Below are positions 3 to 23,829 of a stretch of DNA of 25,679 nt, in pieces; position 1 is the stretch's first letter, and each line of letters starts with the position of its first letter. The stretch covers positions 1 through 25,679 of the forward strand of contig JAOZPR010000009.1 in the NCBI GenBank assembly GCA_029932645.1. The letters are read 5' to 3'. Made by a program: the position numbers and the translations under genes. The notes beneath the pieces are model-generated. The model was not told the DNA's origin, ran no database searches, and saw only the letters and a list, made by a program, of their open reading frames with translations. Source of the DNA: Candidatus Aenigmatarchaeota archaeon. Its GTDB lineage: Archaea; Aenigmatarchaeota; Aenigmatarchaeia; GW2011-AR5; JAGGXF01.

Positions 3-3000
3 TCACAGAGTGGTTACAACGACACCATAAACTGGACAGGTGTGTATGCAGAGTTATATAACGGATCAATTTTATTCAACACTGGTGGCACAGACATATA
101 TGGCTATCTACTAATGAAAGTACAGAAGTCAGAAGCTGGTGGATGGACAGACGTGGAAACAGTTGTTGACGATACCTCGCCGAGAAACATACTAAGCGGT
201 TCTTATCTTAACCTCTCGTCAATATGGAATCCCGCCGGTTGGGACACAGATAAAAGAGATCCAGGAACATATAGAGTGTTCGCAGCACTGAGAGATGGTT
301 CCGGAAATATACTTGAAAATGATGACAATAGTTTGATGACAGGTTACTATCAATTTAACCTAACACCGCCACCCAGTATGATAGAGATAGAAAACATTAA
401 AATCTACGATGTTACAAATGCTGCTAATAATCACACCGATACAACAAATCTAACTGGTTCTGGAACAAACACGACATTTAATCTATATACTGGAAAATTA
501 TATAGAATAGAGTTTTGGGTGAAGAATAACGACAGCAGCGAGGCGAACTGGACCATCAGCTCGTCAGATGACATATTCCACGAATACCTGAACAGCACTT
601 GGGCCATAGATAACAATACTGATATGTGGTTTGCCAACGACACGACAAACAACACAGGCGGAAGCTGGTCTGGTGGAAAGGTCGATTGGGACACTTCGCA
701 AGGGATGAACGTGACCATAGGCAATTATGTCAAGTTCTATTACGTATTCAATATAACGACCGCTGCGAATGAAAACTATCAAGTCCATTTCATGATTAAC
801 AACACATATTTCACAGAGGAAGACTATTCAACGTTCAAGATAATCCTCAGCGAGAGCCAGCCACCGCAACTTTATAATAATATCTATAATATTACACCAA
901 CACAAGTTGACAGGGGGCAATCAGCATTAGTCTATGCGCGCTGGAACGAGGAAATTTCCGAGGCAAAGACTGAATACAACAGCACCTCCTCGACATTACA
1001 GAATCATACAATCAGCCTGCCAGACCCCAACCCACAGAACTGGACAAACCACACAATTTCAACGAACTCTGGCTGGACAACTGGCGTGCACAAAGTAAAG
1101 ATATATGCAGCAGACATGAACAGCAACTGGAACAACACATTGAGCTATCTCGACCTTGATGTCTACGGCTTAGCAAGCGTGGTTGACTCTAATTTAACAA
1201 ACGACACGATTGACTCGGGCGGCTGGACAATAATGCAGTGCCGTGTGCAGGCCGACAACAGCAGTTATATAGAATCTTATAATGTCACATTCTATAATTC
1301 CACAGATTATTTAGGTTACAACACCACAAATGCCACAGGCTGGGCTCGATTCAACTTCACAGACAATAGCCTTGGATACGAAACAATAACGTGTAATATT
1401 ACAGACGATACAACAAAATTCTTACATGCTTCTTCCCAACATCAGAAACAAGAAACCCTTCACACGATAGAGCATGAGCCTCCAAAATACTATAATGTTA
1501 GTCCAAGCCTCTCTATGCAGCACAAGGGATATAACATAACTTATAGGTCCAACTGGACTGATAACTTTGAGCTAGATTATGCATGGTTAGAAACGAATGA
1601 AACCGGGCAGTGGAAAAACAACTCTTTACACAATCCAATCAAGTTAACAGGAGATGAAGACTGGGCAAATTTCACAGTCACACTGCCTCAGAACATGACA
1701 CCGGGAATAATGGGTTGGAGAATATGGGCAAACGACACATCTGGCAACATCAACAAAACAGATGTCAATACGACAGAAGTCCGCGCATGGATAGGTGTTG
1801 CGGACAGTGATCTAACACCTAGTACTATATTCAACAATAGCTGGTCGGTAATGTATTGTCAGGTTCAGGAGGCCAACACATCCGGCATAGATAATTACAA
1901 TGTAACATTCTACAGTAATGAGTCTGGCTACATGGGTTGGAACACGACCAATGCGACAGGTTGGGCTCGATTCAACTTCACAGACAATACAACAGGCCTT
2001 GAAGAAATAACATGTAATATTACAGACGATCTTTCAAGGTATCTCGAGGTCGCTCCAGGTTATGAAAACAGAACAGAAACCCTGGACACCAGAGTTCCTG
2101 GTGCAGATGTGACACCACCAGGTCTGGTTGATAATACATACGGTTTGAACACGACATGGGTCTGGAAAGGCGGTTCTGTTTTAGCATATGCCCACTGGAA
2201 TGAAACAATATACGATGCCTATATAAAATACAATTCCACATCTTCGAGTTTTGAGAGCCATCAAATATCGGGACTGCCGAGCAATTGGACAAATTATACA
2301 ATTTCTACAAATTCTAGCTGGATAGTGGGTAATCATTCTGTGAAGATAAATGCCAGTGATTTTGACAACAACTGGAACAACAGCCTTGAATACAAACACT
2401 TCATCGTTTGGGGACGGTCAGAAGTCGTATGGCTTTCACCTTCTGCTACTGTTTACAGGCAGACGACAGCATTAAGTTGTAATGTGACTGATAAGGACAG
2501 CGGCGAGCCAATACAAGGTGTAACTGTCAAGTTCTACAACGGGTCATGGGAATATTTGGGTTCAAATGATTCAGACGCCACTGGCAAGGCTGAAATAAAC
2601 TACGACTTTAGTTCATATGCGGTGGGACCACAGACGCTGCACTGCGTCATAGAAAATGAACCAAGTCTGTACTACAATACATCATCCGGCGACGACACAG
2701 GCAACGGGCCAATAACTGTGAAAGGTCTCCTGAATGTTAGCATAGATAATCCCGCACCCGGCACAGATGTGCGTAAAGGAGAAATAATATGGCTAAACTC
2801 CAGTACCAAAGATGAATTCGACCAATCTGTCAGCGTCAATGCAACGTGGCGAAACACGACCACAGAATTGGCGACAACAGAGGACTATAATTGGACCATA
2901 CCTGTCGGACATTCTGTCGGTCCAGAACTCATAACCATTAATGTGTCTAAACAATATTACGACCCCGATTCCAAGAACGTTAGTGTAAACGTATGGGGAT

Positions 3001-6000
3001 GGTCAAATATAACCTGGGACAGTCCGGCCTCCGGTAATTATACACAAGAAACTGTGCTGAACCTAACATGTCGCGTACTCGATGCGAACACATCATCAGG
3101 CATCGAGTCTTACAATGTCACATTCTACAACAATGATACGGGCTACATGGGCTACAACACAACGAACAGCACGGGCTATGCGATTTACCATTGGGATACA
3201 ACAGGTCTGCTCGGTAATTACACAGTTACTTGTAATATAACAGACGACGCTTCTGTTTATTATAACGCGACAGCTGATGATTCTGCGACTGCCTGGTTTG
3301 ATATGACAGCAGCAGACACAGAAGCACCCAAATACTCTGGTGTAAACCAGACTGTCGGCGGCACAAATGTAACATTAATACACAAGGGCGAGTCAGTCAA
3401 TTTCACTGCTACATGGACAGATGACCACAACCTTAGCACAGCCCTGCTCGCGACCAATGAGACCGGTTCAATGCAGAACAAGACTGCGAATTACTCATCT
3501 CCGTATTCATTCACAACCGCGATCGGGCCAGAACAAAGCACACTCGAGTGGTCCAACATAACAGACTTCACAGGTCCAATGGGCTGGCAAATCTGGGCAA
3601 ATGATACGACAGGCAAGTCCAACCAGACACCTCTACAGACCATATATGTTTGGGGATGGTCCGAGGTTGATAATGCATATCTGCAGCCCGATAATATAAA
3701 CCAAAGCCAGCAGACTACGATGTATTGTCATGTGCGCGATGCAAACACCACATCTGATTTGAATCAATATAATGTCACATTCTACAACTCTACTGACTAC
3801 TTGGGCTACAACACAACAAACGCAACAGGCTGGGCTCAGTTCACATTTACAGATTATTCTCCTGGTCAAGAAACTATTACGTGTAACATAACTCATGACG
3901 CCTCGCAATATTACAACGCATCTGCCAACAATGAGGGATCTGATGTTCTGACTACAAATGATACAGAGGCGCCGCAATACTCTGATATCAAGCAAACTGT
4001 TGGCGGTTCGCCAGTCACGCTCATACACAAAGGTGAATCAGTAAATCTGAGCGCAAACTGGACAGATAATTATAATCTCAGCACAGCAATATTAGCAACA
4101 AATGAAACAGGTTCATGGCACAACTGGACTGGTAACTATTCATCTCCATATTCATTCACAAGCGCAACTGGTCCTGAGCAGAGCGTGTTCGAATGGTCAA
4201 ACATAACAGATTTCACCGGGTTGATGCAATGGCGCATATATGCAAATGACACAACAGGCAACACGAATGTTACGCCTGCTCAGAATATTTACATATGGGG
4301 CTGGAGTAATATAACCTGGATAGAGCCAACCGAGGACCAGTTCCCTGTTTACAACATTATTGATATAGTATGCAGGGTTCAGGATGTGAATGATTCATCA
4401 GTCATAGAAGATTACAATGTCACGTTCTACAACAACAAGACAGGCTACATGGACTGGAACACGACCAACTCGACAGGTTATGCAGTCTATCACTGGAATG
4501 CGAGCAGCACAGGCAACTATACAATAACCTGTAATATAACTGATTGGGCCGACAAGTATTACAATGCATCTGCTACCAACTCGCAGAACATGTCCATATA
4601 CATCTATAATCAAGTCCCGAACATTACTGATAATGGTTTCACACCAAATACAAACACATACTGGGGCCGCACATACCAGTTCAATGCCACGGTCTCTGAT
4701 GCAGAGTCAGATAACTGTACGGTTAAACTCAATATAGACGGCCAGGTTGTCAACCAGTCTACCCAAGAATGCCCTTCTTCTGGCACAGATGTATTATTGA
4801 ACTGGACAACAGACTACCTGGATGTCGGACAACATGATTATAACTTCACAATTAATGACACAGCAGGCAATTACAATACGACATCAAACAGCACCATAAC
4901 AATAGAGGCAAGAGATTTAGACACGCTTGCTGGTTCATGGACACCTACGGGTTCTATTGTCTACAAAAACGAGACAATCAACTTTACTGTGTCGTCTGTC
5001 ACAGACGAGGCGTCTGATGCTGTGGACGCAACAAACTATACACGCTCAGACACTGGCGATTGGGATCCGTCTGACAACAACGTAGCTGACACGATAAGTC
5101 CGAATGCCCGCGTCACAAACACGACACAATATTATAAAGCATATGCCAACCAGACCAAGCAGTACACAGTATGGTCTTATTCCAATGTGTCCATAACATC
5201 ACCGCCTGACAGCACGCAGGTGGCTCGTGGAGATATAGAGAACATAACATGCAGGGTTGTTGATTATTTCAGCGGGTCCGGAGCGAACAACTACCCAGTA
5301 GACTTCTATATTGATGATACATACAACACAACAATAAATACCAACTCAACAGGCTACGCAACATTCTCCTGGAACAGTTCTGGTTACAGCTTCGGGTTTC
5401 ATGATGTAAATTGCACAATAGATGATAATGAGACGCTGAAATATAATGCATCTGATGATAATGACCACATACAACTTGAGGTCATTGCCGGTGGCACGCT
5501 TTCTGTTAATGTTACTGAGCCTGCAAACCAGAGCGACTACAATCTGTCTGATCAGTTCACCATAAATATAAATGCTTCGTGTTCTGGCGGCGACTGCGGC
5601 GCTGTTAACCTGACACTGCAGTATTGTTCTGGCACATCTTGTACTGATTGGGCAGATGTTTCTACAACAACACCGATAAACACAAGCGAGCCTGCTGAGC
5701 AGGTCTGCGACAGCGACTTGTTGAACAGTGAGCAGTGTAATGTCACATGGACAGTCTGGGCCAGAGACGGCGGAACATACAGAATAAACGGCTTGGCTGA
5801 AAGCACTGTGCTGAACCCTGTCAATGACACAACACCCAACACAATATACATAAACCAGCTGAACGCGACAATAGACAAGCCAGAAGACGATTATCAGTTA
5901 TACGTTAACACAGAGTTCACGCTAAACGGAACAATATATTGCGAGGGCAAGACATGCGGCCATGTCTATGCTTATGCACAGGACAACGAAACTGGCGCAT

Positions 6001-7640
6001 GGGAAAACACAGGTTCGAACAATCTGACAACAACAGACAGCAATCCTTATGACTGCGGTGTCATGAACGACGGGGATTATTGCTATCCTGAGTGGAATAT
6101 GACTTCGGCTGTCGCGAAGGCATATTGGGTCAGGATTTATGTAAACAATTCTGCAGACACTTTGAATAATGTCACCAGCGTAAGGAAAGTTACATTTGCG
6201 ACCGACTTGGACGCGCCACAATATTCAAATGTTAACCAGACAGTTGGCGGCTCCCATGTTACGTTAATTCATAAGGGTGAGTCGGTTAACCTGAGCGCAT
6301 ACTGGACAGACAATGCAGAACTTGATTATGCTCTGCTTGCAACAAACGAAACAGGCTCAATGCAGAACAAGTCTGCTTACGGATCACCACATGACTTTGC
6401 CGGTTCCAACGAATCGTGGGCTAATTTCACTTGGTCCAACATAACAGATTTCACAGGTCCAATGGGCTGGCAGATTTGGGCAAATGATACATCAAACCTC
6501 AGCAACCAGACGCCGTTGCAGACCATATACATTTGGGGTTGGTCTAACGTGACATGGGTTAGTCCAGACTCTACAAACTACACAGAAGGCACGATAGTCA
6601 ATATCACATGTCGCGTACTCGATGCGAACACATCATCAGGCATCGAGTCTTACAATGTCACATTCTACAACAATGATACGGGCTACATGGGCTACAACAC
6701 AACGAACAGCACGGGCTATGCGATTTACCATTGGGATACAACAGGCTCGTCAGGCAACTATACGATAACTTGTAACATAACTGATTGGGCTGCTGAATAC
6801 TATAATGACACAGCCCAGAACAGCGACAACAGATGGTTTAACATAACCGAAGCTCCGTTCTATCTCGAAGCATATTTATATGAACCTGTCGACGACCAAG
6901 TTGTTGGTAAAGACAGGTTATTTACTGTAAATGCCACAGCCATTTGTCGCAATGCGACCTGTGGCACGATTTACGGAACAGTACGATATAACAAAACTAC
7001 TGGTTCCCCAGATACACCCATCAATGAGACCCCGGACACTCCATTTTGGATACCGTCCGGGGTTAATACTCAAAACTGCACAAACGTGTTGGAAAACCAG
7101 TCTTGCAACCTGACATGGTCTGTGAATGCTTCGGGCGGATTCAGGGAAAAATATGAAATAGGCGTTAGATTCAGCAGCTCAGGTGTTACAAACGACACGC
7201 CAAGCAACACAGTAGAGATAGGCAAGGTCTTGCTTTTGAACCTCACATTCGATTCAATCGATTTCGGGGAGCATGACCCTGGCACAGAAAATGTTTCAGC
7301 GCCGGGCAACACGAATAATCAATATAATATAACAGTTGAGCCAAACTCCAATAACGTAGAATGGTTATGGATAAAAAGCACAAACCTGACACACACAGAT
7401 TATGAGGGCAGTCCGAGTCCGCCAAGTTATACGATAATACCAGCCACAAGCGTCAAATGGAACAACCAAACCAACAATGTTACAAGCGCGGCCGCCATGA
7501 GTAATGTTTATCAGTTGATGCGCGAGAATGTGTCGTCAAACACGACCATCAATACATACTATTGGATATCTGTGCCGACCGGAAAGGCACACGGCGTTTA
7601 CAACGGCGTGATGTACATATTTGCTAATGCGACATACTAA
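3..7640 (+). CDS. Giant repetitive secreted/surface glycoprotein (tandem Ig-like beta domains, C-terminal fimbrial-subunit-like domain); 5' end lies upstream of the window
   Basis: ORF track gives 42..7640 (2532 aa) but the frame is open back to position 3 and no signal peptide is visible. N/T/S/D-rich with very many N-x-S/T sequons. Recurring modules such as 'C.V.DANTSSGIESYNVTFYN...GYNTTN.TG.A' and 'D.EAP.YS...QTVGG..VTLIHKGESVN..A.WTD...L..A.LATNETG'. No C-terminal TM anchor. Confidence 0.85.
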   Translation, partial: SQSGYNDTINWTGVYAELYNGSILFNTGGTDIYGYLLMKVQKSEAGGWTDVETVVDDTSPRNILSGSYLNLSSIWNPAGWDTDKRDPGTYRVFAALRDGSGNILENDDNSLMTGYYQFNLTPPPSMIEIENIKIYDVTNAANNHTDTTNLTGSGTNTTFNLYTGKLYRIEFWVKNNDSSEANWTISSSDDIFHEYLNSTWAIDNNTDMWFANDTTNNTGGSWSGGKVDWDTSQGMNVTIGNYVKFYYVFNITTAANENYQVHFMINNTYFTEEDYSTFKIILSESQPPQLYNNIYNITPTQVDRGQSALVYARWNEEISEAKTEYNSTSSTLQNHTISLPDPNPQNWTNHTISTNSGWTTGVHKVKIYAADMNSNWNNTLSYLDLDVYGLASVVDSNLTNDTIDSGGWTIMQCRVQADNSSYIESYNVTFYNSTDYLGYNTTNATGWARFNFTDNSLGYETITCNITDDTTKFLHASSQHQKQETLHTIEHEPPKYYNVSPSLSMQHKGYNITYRSNWTDNFELDYAWLETNETGQWKNNSLHNPIKLTGDEDWANFTVTLPQNMTPGIMGWRIWANDTSGNINKTDVNTTEVRAWIGVADSDLTPSTIFNNSWSVMYCQVQEANTSGIDNYNVTFYSNESGYMGWNTTNATGWARFNFTDNTTGLEEITCNITDDLSRYLEVAPGYENRTETLDTRVPGADVTPPGLVDNTYGLNTTWVWKGGSVLAYAHWNETIYDAYIKYNSTSSSFESHQISGLPSNWTNYTISTNSSWIVGNHSVKINASDFDNNWNNSLEYKHFIVWGRSEVVWLSPSATVYRQTTALSCNVTDKDSGEPIQGVTVKFYNGSWEYLGSNDSDATGKAEINYDFSSYAVGPQTLHCVIENEPSLYYNTSSGDDTGNGPITVKGLLNVSIDNPAPGTDVRKGEIIWLNSSTKDEFDQSVSVNATWRNTTTELATTEDYNWTIPVGHSVGPELITINVSKQYYDPDSKNVSVNVWGWSNITWDSPASGNYTQETVLNLTCRVLDANTSSGIESYNVTFYNNDTGYMGYNTTNSTGYAIYHWDTTGLLGNYTVTCNITDDASVYYNATADDSATAWFDMTAADTEAPKYSGVNQTVGGTNVTLIHKGESVNFTATWTDDHNLSTALLATNETGSMQNKTANYSSPYSFTTAIGPEQSTLEWSNITDFTGPMGWQIWANDTTGKSNQTPLQTIYVWGWSEVDNAYLQPDNINQSQQTTMYCHVRDANTTSDLNQYNVTFYNSTDYLGYNTTNATGWAQFTFTDYSPGQETITCNITHDASQYYNASANNEGSDVLTTNDTEAPQYSDIKQTVGGSPVTLIHKGESVNLSANWTDNYNLSTAILATNETGSWHNWTGNYSSPYSFTSATGPEQSVFEWSNITDFTGLMQWRIYANDTTGNTNVTPAQNIYIWGWSNITWIEPTEDQFPVYNIIDIVCRVQDVNDSSVIEDYNVTFYNNKTGYMDWNTTNSTGYAVYHWNASSTGNYTITCNITDWADKYYNASATNSQNMSIYIYNQVPNITDNGFTPNTNTYWGRTYQFNATVSDAESDNCTVKLNIDGQVVNQSTQECPSSGTDVLLNWTTDYLDVGQHDYNFTINDTAGNYNTTSNSTITIEARDLDTLAGSWTPTGSIVYKNETINFTVSSVTDEASDAVDATNYTRSDTGDWDPSDNNVADTISPNARVTNTTQYYKAYANQTKQYTVWSYSNVSITSPPDSTQVARGDIENITCRVVDYFSGSGANNYPVDFYIDDTYNTTINTNSTGYATFSWNSSGYSFGFHDVNCTIDDNETLKYNASDDNDHIQLEVIAGGTLSVNVTEPANQSDYNLSDQFTININASCSGGDCGAVNLTLQYCSGTSCTDWADVSTTTPINTSEPAEQVCDSDLLNSEQCNVTWTVWARDGGTYRINGLAESTVLNPVNDTTPNTIYINQLNATIDKPEDDYQLYVNTEFTLNGTIYCEGKTCGHVYAYAQDNETGAWENTGSNNLTTTDSNPYDCGVMNDGDYCYPEWNMTSAVAKAYWVRIYVNNSADTLNNVTSVRKVTFATDLDAPQYSNVNQTVGGSHVTLIHKGESVNLSAYWTDNAELDYALLATNETGSMQNKSAYGSPHDFAGSNESWANFTWSNITDFTGPMGWQIWANDTSNLSNQTPLQTIYIWGWSNVTWVSPDSTNYTEGTIVNITCRVLDANTSSGIESYNVTFYNNDTGYMGYNTTNSTGYAIYHWDTTGSSGNYTITCNITDWAAEYYNDTAQNSDNRWFNITEAPFYLEAYLYEPVDDQVVGKDRLFTVNATAICRNATCGTIYGTVRYNKTTGSPDTPINETPDTPFWIPSGVNTQNCTNVLENQSCNLTWSVNASGGFREKYEIGVRFSSSGVTNDTPSNTVEIGKVLLLNLTFDSIDFGEHDPGTENVSAPGNTNNQYNITVEPNSNNVEWLWIKSTNLTHTDYEGSPSPPSYTIIPATSVKWNNQTNNVTSAAAMSNVYQLMRENVSSNTTINTYYWISVPTGKAHGVYNGVMYIFANATY
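3066..3205 (+). repeat. 140-bp exact intragenic repeat, copy 1
   Basis: Identical by eye to 6606..6745 (offset 3540, in frame). Confidence 0.9.
6606..6745 (+). repeat. 140-bp exact intragenic repeat, copy 2
   Basis: Identical by eye to 3066..3205. Confidence 0.9.
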
Positions 7641-21499: not shown

Positions 21500-21609
21500 G
21501 CCGAGATGACAGAGTCAGGTCAAAACGATATTAAAAACGAGATTAAATGTGCTCGCCTCGAGAGCGAGTGAGCCTTGTGCTCGCGCAGGTTCAAATCCTG
21601 CTCTCGGCG
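21500..21609 (+). tRNA. tRNA-Ser(CGA) with a 23-nt D-loop intron (21524-21546)
   Basis: Acceptor GCCGAGA/TCTCGGC+G; anticodon arm CTCGC-CT-CGA-GA-GCGAG; long variable arm; T-arm GCAGG-TTCAAAT-CCTGC. BHB-like GGTC-AAA...GATT-AAA; the spliced D-arm is ACA-GAGTCAGGTCAAA-TGT. Confidence 0.93.
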
Positions 21610-22788: not shown

Positions 22789-22912
22789 GCGATGGTAGTC
22801 TAGAAACCTTTTTCCAGCTTCGCTGCAAAAGCGTTTACGGAAAAGGTTGGATAATCTGGTAGGACACTACCCTGCCACGGTAGCGACCCGGGTTCAAATC
22901 CCGGCCATCGCA
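22789..22912 (+). tRNA. tRNA-Gly(GCC) with a 51-nt D-loop intron (22804-22854, position ~15/16)
   Basis: Acceptor GCGATGG/CCATCGC+A; anticodon arm CTACC-CT-GCC-AC-GGTAG; T-arm CCGGG-TTCAAAT-CCCGG. Relaxed BHB GTCT-AGA/GGAT-AAT closed by AACCTTTT/AAAAGGTT; spliced length 73 nt. Confidence 0.93.
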
Positions 22913-23582: not shown

Positions 23583-23743
23583 GCAGAGGTAGCCAAGTCT
23601 GGTCAAAGGCGTAGGACTCAAGTAAACTTTTAGAAAAAGTTTAATCAAAATATTACTTGAGTTTTGAGTTTTGCACCGCAAAACCATGATAAGAGAAATC
23701 CTATCCATTAGTTGGTTCGTCGGTTCGAATCCGGCCCTCTGCA
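23583..23743 (+). tRNA. tRNA-Leu(CAA) with a 75-nt canonical 37/38 intron (23623-23697)
   Basis: Acceptor GCAGAGG/CCTCTGC+A; D-arm GCC-AAGTCTGGTCAAA-GGC; anticodon stem TAGGA/TCCTA with CT-CAA-G|A; variable arm; T-arm GTCGG-TTCGAAT-CCGGC; spliced length 86 nt. Confidence 0.93.
23653..23692 (+). ncRNA. Intron-encoded single C'/D'-type guide element antisense to its own pre-tRNA anticodon
   Basis: Guide TTACTTGAGTT (23653-63) pairs with 23615-25. D'-like TTGA at 23664-67, stem GTTTTGC/GCAAAAC, C'-like ATGATAA at 23686-92. Confidence 0.65.
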
Positions 23744-23777: not shown

Positions 23778-23829
23778 ACCCCGATGATGACGTTTGGCAT
23801 GATTTCATGTCACGGGCGGGCTGAGGGGT
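23778..23829 (+). ncRNA. Free-standing box C/D sRNA, predicted guide for 16S rRNA Cm1402 (E. coli numbering)
   Basis: Terminal stem ACCCC/GGGGT, box C ATGATGA 23784-90, box D CTGA 23821-24. The D guide ACGGGCGG is complementary to the universally conserved 16S CCGCCCGT. Confidence 0.82.

Follow-up and report, generated by a model that had tools for sequence, protein, structure and literature searches.

The closest described relatives of the element treated here are archaeal RNAs of the box C/D type that act on, or reside in, tRNA precursors. In the available passages of a 2024 review (PMC11408192), the euryarchaeal tRNA-Trp intron is the sole intron-borne methylation guide given. The available parts of two further papers describe the 66-nt tRNA-Met intron of Nanoarchaeum equitans as a stable C/D-like RNA (Randau 2012, PMC3491384) and, for Pyrococcus, C/D guides acting in trans on position 34 of the Leu(CAA), Leu(UAA), Met and Trp tRNAs (Breuer 2021, PMC7994747). 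Our analysis concerns the interrupted tRNA-Leu(CAA) gene at 23583-23743 (+) of contig JAOZPR010000009.1 from Candidatus Aenigmatarchaeota archaeon (assembly GCA_029932645.1); the window, i.e. the whole stretch of DNA analysed, comprises 25,679 nucleotides. A first-pass annotation, made by a model from the letters alone, had proposed that the intron of this gene guides the methylation of its own wobble nucleotide. We consider it probable that the intron is a minimal box C'/D'-type guide, consisting of an 11-nt antisense and a single kink-turn (K-turn), and predicted to be aimed at C34 of the precursor in which it lies. Comparative data support the methylation interpretation and widen it beyond the original proposal, as the design appears in introns of tRNA-Leu, tRNA-Met and tRNA-Trp across the phylum.

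A predicted guide and K-turn in the tRNA-Leu(CAA) intron

The Rfam tRNA model matches 23583-23743 (+) with 42.3 bits (gathering threshold 29) and leaves a 78-nt insertion within the anticodon loop, while ARAGORN, with introns allowed, reports tRNA-Leu(caa) with a 75-nt intron. Without its intron mode this program misses the gene, and with it several disrupted tRNAs are miscalled. According to Rfam, ARAGORN and the sequence itself, the 5' exon spans 23583-23622 (+) and carries the anticodon C34-A35-A36 at 23619-23621. The 75-nt intron follows at 23623-23697 (+) in the canonical position 37/38, a placement indicated by both programs and by ortholog introns of 29-72 nt at the identical site. The 3' exon (23698-23743, +; sequence and Rfam) supplies the long variable arm, the T arm, the acceptor strand and the discriminator A. 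This intron placement is the sole one that yields a loop CUCAAGA closed by UAGGA/UCCUA; in contigs of other organisms, exon similarity stops with loose ends at 23622/23623.

The antisense TTACTTGAGTT (23653-23663, +) lies antiparallel to GACTCAAGTAA (23615-23625), with which it forms ten Watson-Crick pairs and one G.U pair. It is followed by a D'-like box UUGA (23664-23667, +), which would provide the non-bulged strand of a K-turn (4n U, 3n U, 2n G, 1n A). Then come a 7-bp C-stem hairpin, GTTTTGC/GCAAAAC, with the loop ACC (23668-23674 with 23678-23684, +; found in the precursor fold and by a script that parses the intron) and the stretch 23685-23692 (+), made up of a 3-nt bulge CAU (23685-23687) and GAUAA (23688-23692); the C'-like box AUGAUAA corresponds to 23686-23692. 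At the sequence level the features of a K-turn are thus present: a stem, a 3-nt bulge, and a tandem GA opposite the GA of UUGA. The predicted pairs are sheared G23688.A23667 and A23689.G23666, then U23690.U23665 and A23691-U23664. Compared with the consensus RUGAUGA and CUGA, the boxes AUGAUAA and UUGA show one deviation each, and the deviating positions can pair as A-U. The nucleotide G23659, fifth upstream of UUGA, pairs with C34 (23619), i.e. the anticodon nucleotide lies at the position selected by a guide of this type (N+5). The pairing, the box with its stem, bulge and GATAA, and the register on C34 had all been part of the first-pass annotation; each was recovered at exactly the coordinates given there, and the script gave an 11-pair guide with C34 at N+5, as well as a stem of 7 bp closed by 3 loop nucleotides.

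In the minimum free energy fold of the precursor, the helix between guide and anticodon and the hairpin are both present (-51.1 kcal/mol, z = -4.91; 0 of 200 shuffles equally stable). The frequency of such an arrangement by chance was estimated from 200,000 dinucleotide shuffles of the tRNA-Leu intron. A guide of at least 7 pairs with NTGA placed at N+5 arose in 1,013 of these (0.5%), a guide of at least 11 pairs in 29, and at least 7 guide pairs together with a hairpin K-turn of at least 4 bp in 25. No antisense to position 39, i.e. no second guide, was detected in the tRNA-Leu intron. Rfam C/D families gave no match to the tRNA-Leu, tRNA-Met or tRNA-Trp introns at E values up to 10; a weak match to the Rfam family TD-2 on the minus strand was dismissed as spurious.

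Recurrence of the design among tRNAs and relatives

Two further tRNA genes of the same genome (G000) contain introns of this design. The intron of elongator tRNA-Met(CAU) (contig C29:4818-4944, -) reads UUAUGAGCU-UUGA-GCUGU/GCAGC-AAU-GACA, and that of tRNA-Trp(CCA) (C29:1107-1230, +) reads CUGGAGCG-UUGA-GAUGCC/GGCAUC-AGU-GAUA, the stem being closed by a UUCG loop. C34 stands opposite the fifth guide nucleotide in both, and the tRNA-Trp intron contains one guide and one K-turn. The guides of tRNA-Met introns are complementary to exon sequence only.

The tRNA-Leu(CAA) gene was then compared across one genome per species for 185,579 bacterial and archaeal species, the only requirement being that CTTGAG follow the anticodon arm at a distance of 4-34 nt. 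The 31 matches comprise 20 archaeal tRNA-Leu(CAA) genes and 11 bacterial sequences that are not tRNAs, the latter in about the number expected by chance. Relatives that share the tRNA-Leu genes are Aenigmatarchaeota (DPANN); in the following, G001 denotes a relative from the same genus and G002 one from the same family. All 20 archaeal orthologs, recovered without any demand for a box, contain the CUUGAG core, and in 19 of them CTTGAG-NN-N[T/C]GA leads into a hairpin or else a short loop, with GA coming next. The first-pass annotation had named an intron alignment as a check on its claim; guide and box are kept in these 19 of 20 orthologs, and the stem of the K-turn covaries. A pattern search with GACTCAAG-N(2-32)-CTTGAG-NN-NTGA over the phylum found 42 of 371 genomes from many families, against 0 of 371 for the reversed control; G000 is outside these matches because its gap measures 33 nt. 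For the other two tRNAs, the precursors served as BLAST queries against the order's 70 genomes; this yielded 30 tRNA-Met and 14 tRNA-Trp loci, which show the same guide and single K-turn.

The main count covers 21 Leu, 22 Met and 8 Trp introns (51 in total, non-redundant), in which the guide was located by Watson-Crick complementarity alone; two more tRNA-Met rows were left out because contiguous pairing in their guides stays below 6 pairs. A box N[U/C]GA occurs exactly five nucleotides after the G that pairs with C34 in 47 of 51 introns, whereas the other offsets from 2 to 9 hold four boxes at offset 2, two at offset 9 and none elsewhere. In 35 of 51, a hairpin of at least 3 bp directly after the box is followed by exactly 3 nt and GA, compared with 7.3% of shuffled tails; other bulge lengths are found in 7-9 of 51. 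The third nucleotide of the bulge is U in all 35 hairpin-type introns. Box variants in relatives include UUGA, CUGA, AUGA, CCGA and UCGA. In the remaining tRNA-Leu introns a loop takes the place of the hairpin (UUGA-loop-GAUGAUA), an arrangement typical of archaeal C'/D' motifs. Of 65 cases, 49 form the 4n-4b pair (U-A in 45, C-G in 4). The annotation had described the A-U pair as a compensatory replacement of the usual box C/D G-C pair: the A-U pair can indeed form, but it gives no clear sign of compensation, U-A being the norm of the family.

Across 38 aligned hairpin-type elements, whose stem sequences vary widely while pairing is retained, double-sided changes occur at all four stem pairs. 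The covariation score of 0.758 compares with 0.208 in shuffles, none of 500 reaching it, and with 0.06-0.19 when partners are slid. Because the rows had been pre-selected for a stem of at least 3 bp, the percentage of paired positions is not independent evidence and only the covariation counts.

With lengths of just 32-46 nt, many of the orthologous introns could not accommodate two motifs. In the relative G027 (locus L017, minus strand, near locus position 1568) the module is found in a tRNA-Leu(CAA) intron at position 30/31, reading ACUUGAGUU-CUGA-AGAAA-GAUGAUGG; here it is located upstream of the targeted anticodon loop and has the canonical CUGA, with C34 at N+5. These data bear on the earlier description of the element as an independent, minimal single-motif guide. 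The minimal form, with one K-turn and one guide, is borne out; an independent origin is not supported, the same module occurring in three tRNAs and at 30/31 in G027.

Two side observations were made on the tRNA-Leu gene of G001 (locus L002). Guide and box of its intron are tandemly duplicated, CUUGAGUG-UUGA-G-UUGAGUU-UUGA, with C34 fifth in both registers, and the T-loop of the gene is interrupted by a second intron.

Proposed mechanism and rival explanations

The interpretation of the splicing motif is closely tied to that of the guide. At 23693-23698 (+), GAG (23693-23695) can pair with C34-U33-C32 and is followed by a 3-nt bulge A-A|A containing the 3' splice site 23697|23698. This gives the 3' half of the motif termed bulge-helix-bulge (BHB): the anticodon stem, the bulge A-A|A, a 3-bp helix of C32-C34 with G23695-G23693, and then an A.A mismatch. 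The canonical motif has a 4-bp helix with a 3-nt bulge on either side, at the splice sites. Neither a canonical 5' bulge nor an outer helix was found in the sequence or the precursor fold; such a relaxed motif is expected where non-canonical introns abound. Because C32-C34 are used by both the guide duplex and the central splicing helix, the two pairings are mutually exclusive, which confirms the clash pointed out in the first-pass annotation. The pairing of the tRNA-Trp intron guide likewise competes with the splicing motif. As a side observation, in one DNA run (X3) a T replaces A at 23692; the resulting box GAUAU equals that of G001, and the central helix would gain an A35-U pair.

We propose the following course of events. 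L7Ae would bind the K-turn formed by UUGA, the 7-bp hairpin, the CAU bulge and GAUA; Nop5 and fibrillarin would then dock, and the nucleotide opposite the fifth guide position, C34, would be 2'-O-methylated to Cm34. Since C32-C34 are used twice, the precursor must refold between guide duplex and splicing helix, so that methylation would precede splicing. Genes for the machinery are encoded in G000: L7Ae (99.5 bits), Nop5 (171.6 bits, 325 aa) and, adjoining Nop5, fibrillarin (215+60 bits). Moreover, the tRNAs that bear the element – Leu-CAA, elongator Met and Trp – all belong to the Pyrococcus set in which position 34 is C/D-guided. Taken together, the antisense, the box at N+5, the K-turn, the covarying stem and the three protein genes all agree with the proposed self-guide for C34.

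Several observations weigh against this reading. Within 23623-23697 there is no other UGAUGA/CUGA pair and hence a single K-turn, while the accessible text of Hardin and Batey 2006 (PMC1635284) describes two motifs as an absolutely conserved architecture of natural complexes and reports that single-motif ribonucleoproteins (RNPs) are poorly active and lose their site specificity in vitro. A motif resembling the hairpin K-turn is not rare by itself: the genome contains 118 matches, as against 90-121 in shuffles. The signal consequently lies in its combination with the antisense, a single sequence is not conclusive, and K-turn-like hairpins are unusable alone for finding more guides. From the 29-nt intron of G002 the K-turn has been lost while the antisense is still there, so the latter can persist on its own; a crude pattern test for a trans replacement guide in this genome found two matches to CTTGAGNNNYGA (two and four in the reversed control), both in coding sequence. 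The boxes of four tRNA-Met introns depart from the G.A consensus (TCAA, CGTA, TGTA, CTTA), and the 4n-4b pair is not formed in 16 of 65 cases. The switch between pairings rests on a relaxed splicing motif with a central helix of 3 bp and no canonical 5' bulge. A frameshift at an A5/T4 run interrupts the fibrillarin frame of G000 (C27:6696-7339, -; about position 370 of locus L071), possibly through an error of assembly; the gene is intact in all five relatives checked, including one of the same genus. Finally, neither RNA coverage nor joints were seen at the locus in one small RNA run and three DNA runs. The annotation had also described the target as present only in the unspliced precursor. 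This holds in part: the target does span the exon-intron junction, but just 3 of the 11 pairs (23623-23625) involve intron nucleotides and are specific to the precursor, whereas the other eight lie in the exon, so that an 8-pair duplex could still form with the spliced tRNA.

Some of these points could also be explained by an element of architecture or splicing control that involves no methylation, with L7Ae on the K-turn and the antisense masking the anticodon loop, thereby shaping or timing recognition by the endonuclease or protecting the precursor. The competition between antisense and central splicing helix, the antisense of G002 that outlasted its K-turn, the position of the K-turn GA directly at the 3' splice site in orthologs such as L059 and L066, and the poor, unspecific activity of single-motif RNPs in vitro would all fit such a role. 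It would not, however, predict the invariant five-nucleotide spacing between C34 and the box (47 of 51), nor does it explain why the element is restricted to tRNAs with known guided 2'-O-methylation at position 34 (Nm34) or why C34 is still targeted when the module sits at 30/31; we therefore regard it as unlikely. The eight exon-only pairs, as well as the tRNA-Met guides that pair with exon sequence alone, raise a different question, namely whether guiding is done by the intron after its excision, in linear or circular form, with other precursors or spliced tRNA-Leu as its targets in trans. The tRNA-Trp guide of Haloferax volcanii acts in trans according to the available passages of the 2024 review (PMC11408192). 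Against this, the three further pairs at 23623-23625 can form in the precursor only; we think this quite unlikely, and it is a variant of the self-guide reading with the same target and the same chemistry.

Residual complementarity to the anticodon loop, as seen in many tRNA introns, might also have met with a fortuitous GA-rich hairpin, leaving a relic or a product of chance. The genome-wide chance frequency of K-turn-like hairpins and the 0.5% of shuffled introns with a 7-pair guide and NTGA at N+5 are compatible with this, but a design conserved with covariation in three tRNAs and dozens of genomes, and a reversed pattern found in 0 of 371, strongly disfavour it, and we judge it most improbable. 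A last alternative draws on the 5' part of the intron. Outside the guide element, 23624-23650 (+) forms a promoter-like module composed of AAACTTTT-AGA-AAAAGTTT-AATCAAAA: a palindromic hairpin, in which 23624-23631 pair with 23635-23642, followed by AATCAAAA, as indicated by the precursor fold and near-identical 28-mers elsewhere. Such 28-mers are found about 30 nt upstream of the start of an open reading frame (G031), in an intergenic region (G059) and in other tRNA introns (G037; contigs C20 and C28 of G000). The module could be an internal promoter, comparable to the promoter described within the long tRNA-Asp intron of A. pernix in the available passages of Chan 2011 (PMC3218864), or a mobile hairpin. 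If it drove transcription of a 3' half that the antisense joined to the 5' half, the gene could be turning into a split tRNA or be descended from one; the copies at the reading frame and in other tRNA introns, the A. pernix promoter and the T-runs after the guide would be in line with this. Yet the ortholog of G001 lacks the module and still has guide and K-turn, a transcript starting about 25 nt downstream of the module would miss guide and D' box, and the K-turn would be left unexplained; we likewise judge this scenario most improbable.

Returning to the self-guide reading, a broader hypothesis can be formulated: in Aenigmatarchaeota, and perhaps in other DPANN, single-K-turn cis guides in at least three tRNA introns (Leu-CAA, Met, Trp), possibly together with free-standing mini C/D RNAs of about 40 nt, serve fibrillarin, Nop5 and L7Ae. 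We put this forward tentatively, as a possibility rather than an expectation. If true, single-K-turn guides would contradict the two-motif rule for site-specific methylation derived in vitro. Either the tRNA body or a second precursor would replace the missing motif, or a genuine hemi-RNP would exist; and, by way of two pairings that exclude each other, wobble methylation would be linked to when splicing takes place.

Genomic context and comparison with known systems

The genome holding the window, which is its contig C10, comprises 0.72 Mb in 43 contigs, is 89% complete and has a G+C content of 41%; nearly all of its tRNA genes are interrupted. A small box C/D RNA, CCCC-GAUGAUGA-30 nt-CUGA-GGGG, lies 35 nt downstream of the tRNA-Leu gene (23779-23828, +). 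No 16S rRNA was found in the assembly, and the target of this RNA was therefore checked on relatives. Its 12-nt D guide (23809-23820) is complementary to CCGCCCGU in the 16S rRNA of G001 and G002, with the fifth guide position on the first C of CCC, which we take to be the equivalent of C1402 in E. coli numbering. The versions of G001 and G002 have only 18 nt between the boxes, i.e. a single K-turn and a single guide, and the terminal stem covaries. Rfam gives weak sR1/sR53-like matches to the neighbouring RNA (E about 1-2). A crude screen for canonical C/D small RNAs (sRNAs) returned two candidates and missed the one of the window, which makes it uninformative on their total number. Just upstream of tRNA-Met on C29 (L069, 256-294, -), a CD-box snoRNA family was seen to match weakly (23.3 bits, E 4.1); the match may represent another small C/D RNA adjoining a tRNA gene, or chance.

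Two more tRNA genes precede the locus. The one at 21500-21609 (+; Rfam 45.8 bits) has a 28-nt insertion in the D-loop and is miscalled as Asn by ARAGORN; from its anticodon loop CUCGAGA we read it as a candidate tRNA-Ser(CGA). For tRNA-Gly(GCC) (22844-22912, +) the Rfam match is limited to model positions 5-66, and its 5' acceptor strand may be set apart by a short insertion. A gene for tRNA-Leu(UAA) was not found in the 89%-complete assembly. A very long open reading frame of more than 2,500 aa (3-7640, +) extends past the start of the window.

In searches of the full-text literature, neither a cis guide within a tRNA-Leu intron nor K-turns in tRNA introns of Aenigmatarchaeota turned up, with the limits that 'C/D' is unsearchable as a word and subscription journals are mostly uncovered. 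As far as the available passages of the sources go, the euryarchaeal pre-tRNA-Trp guide (Haloferax volcanii; Pyrococcus sR50) is similar in several respects: it resides in its own 37/38 intron, and its antisense is located upstream of a D'-type box with C34 at the fifth position (PMC11408192, PMC7994747). That guide, however, combines C/D and C'/D' motifs with two guides, for Cm34 and Um39, whereas the tRNA-Leu(CAA) element has one K-turn and one guide. The intron RNA of elongator tRNA-Met from N. equitans, likewise a member of DPANN, resembles it in having one box D, a degenerate box C and a hairpin (Randau 2012, PMC3491384). The available passages of that paper are confined to tRNA-Met and give no target, no N+5 argument, no comparative support and no tRNA-Leu. 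With the Cm34 guides of Pyrococcus the element would share its target, C34 of tRNA-Leu(CAA), and the enzyme system (PMC7994747, PMC7668247, as far as their available passages show); those guides are free-standing two-motif sRNAs acting in trans, in contrast to a single motif acting in cis.

Architecturally, the nearest counterparts are synthetic half-mer or hemi box C/D RNPs with one K-turn and one guide, described in the available passages on hemi-complexes (PMC1635284) and on the crystal structure of a Pyrococcus half-mer (PMC6239191). The hemi-complex is artificial, weakly active and unspecific as to site, whereas the intron design is natural and conserved across a phylum, and is known here from sequence. 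The product would be the same as that of bacterial TrmL, Cm34 on tRNA-Leu(CAA), to judge from the available passages of PMC4615657; TrmL is a protein-only enzyme of an unrelated family and uses no guide RNA. The element would thus work like a box C/D guide, yet it lacks the two-motif feature of that family and matches no Rfam C/D family.

On this comparison, the principle of the intron-borne guide would extend to tRNA-Leu(CAA), tRNA-Met and tRNA-Trp across a DPANN phylum, in a form reduced to one K-turn, and would offer a functional reason why tiny genomes keep certain tRNA introns. It would point to a simple switch in the RNA by which modification is made to precede splicing. Nature would also supply a case in which to study the long-standing question of what makes box C/D RNPs bipartite and whether one motif is enough for site specificity. 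For Cm34 of tRNA-Leu(CAA), the intron guide may represent a third route, beside TrmL in bacteria and the trans guides of Pyrococcus.

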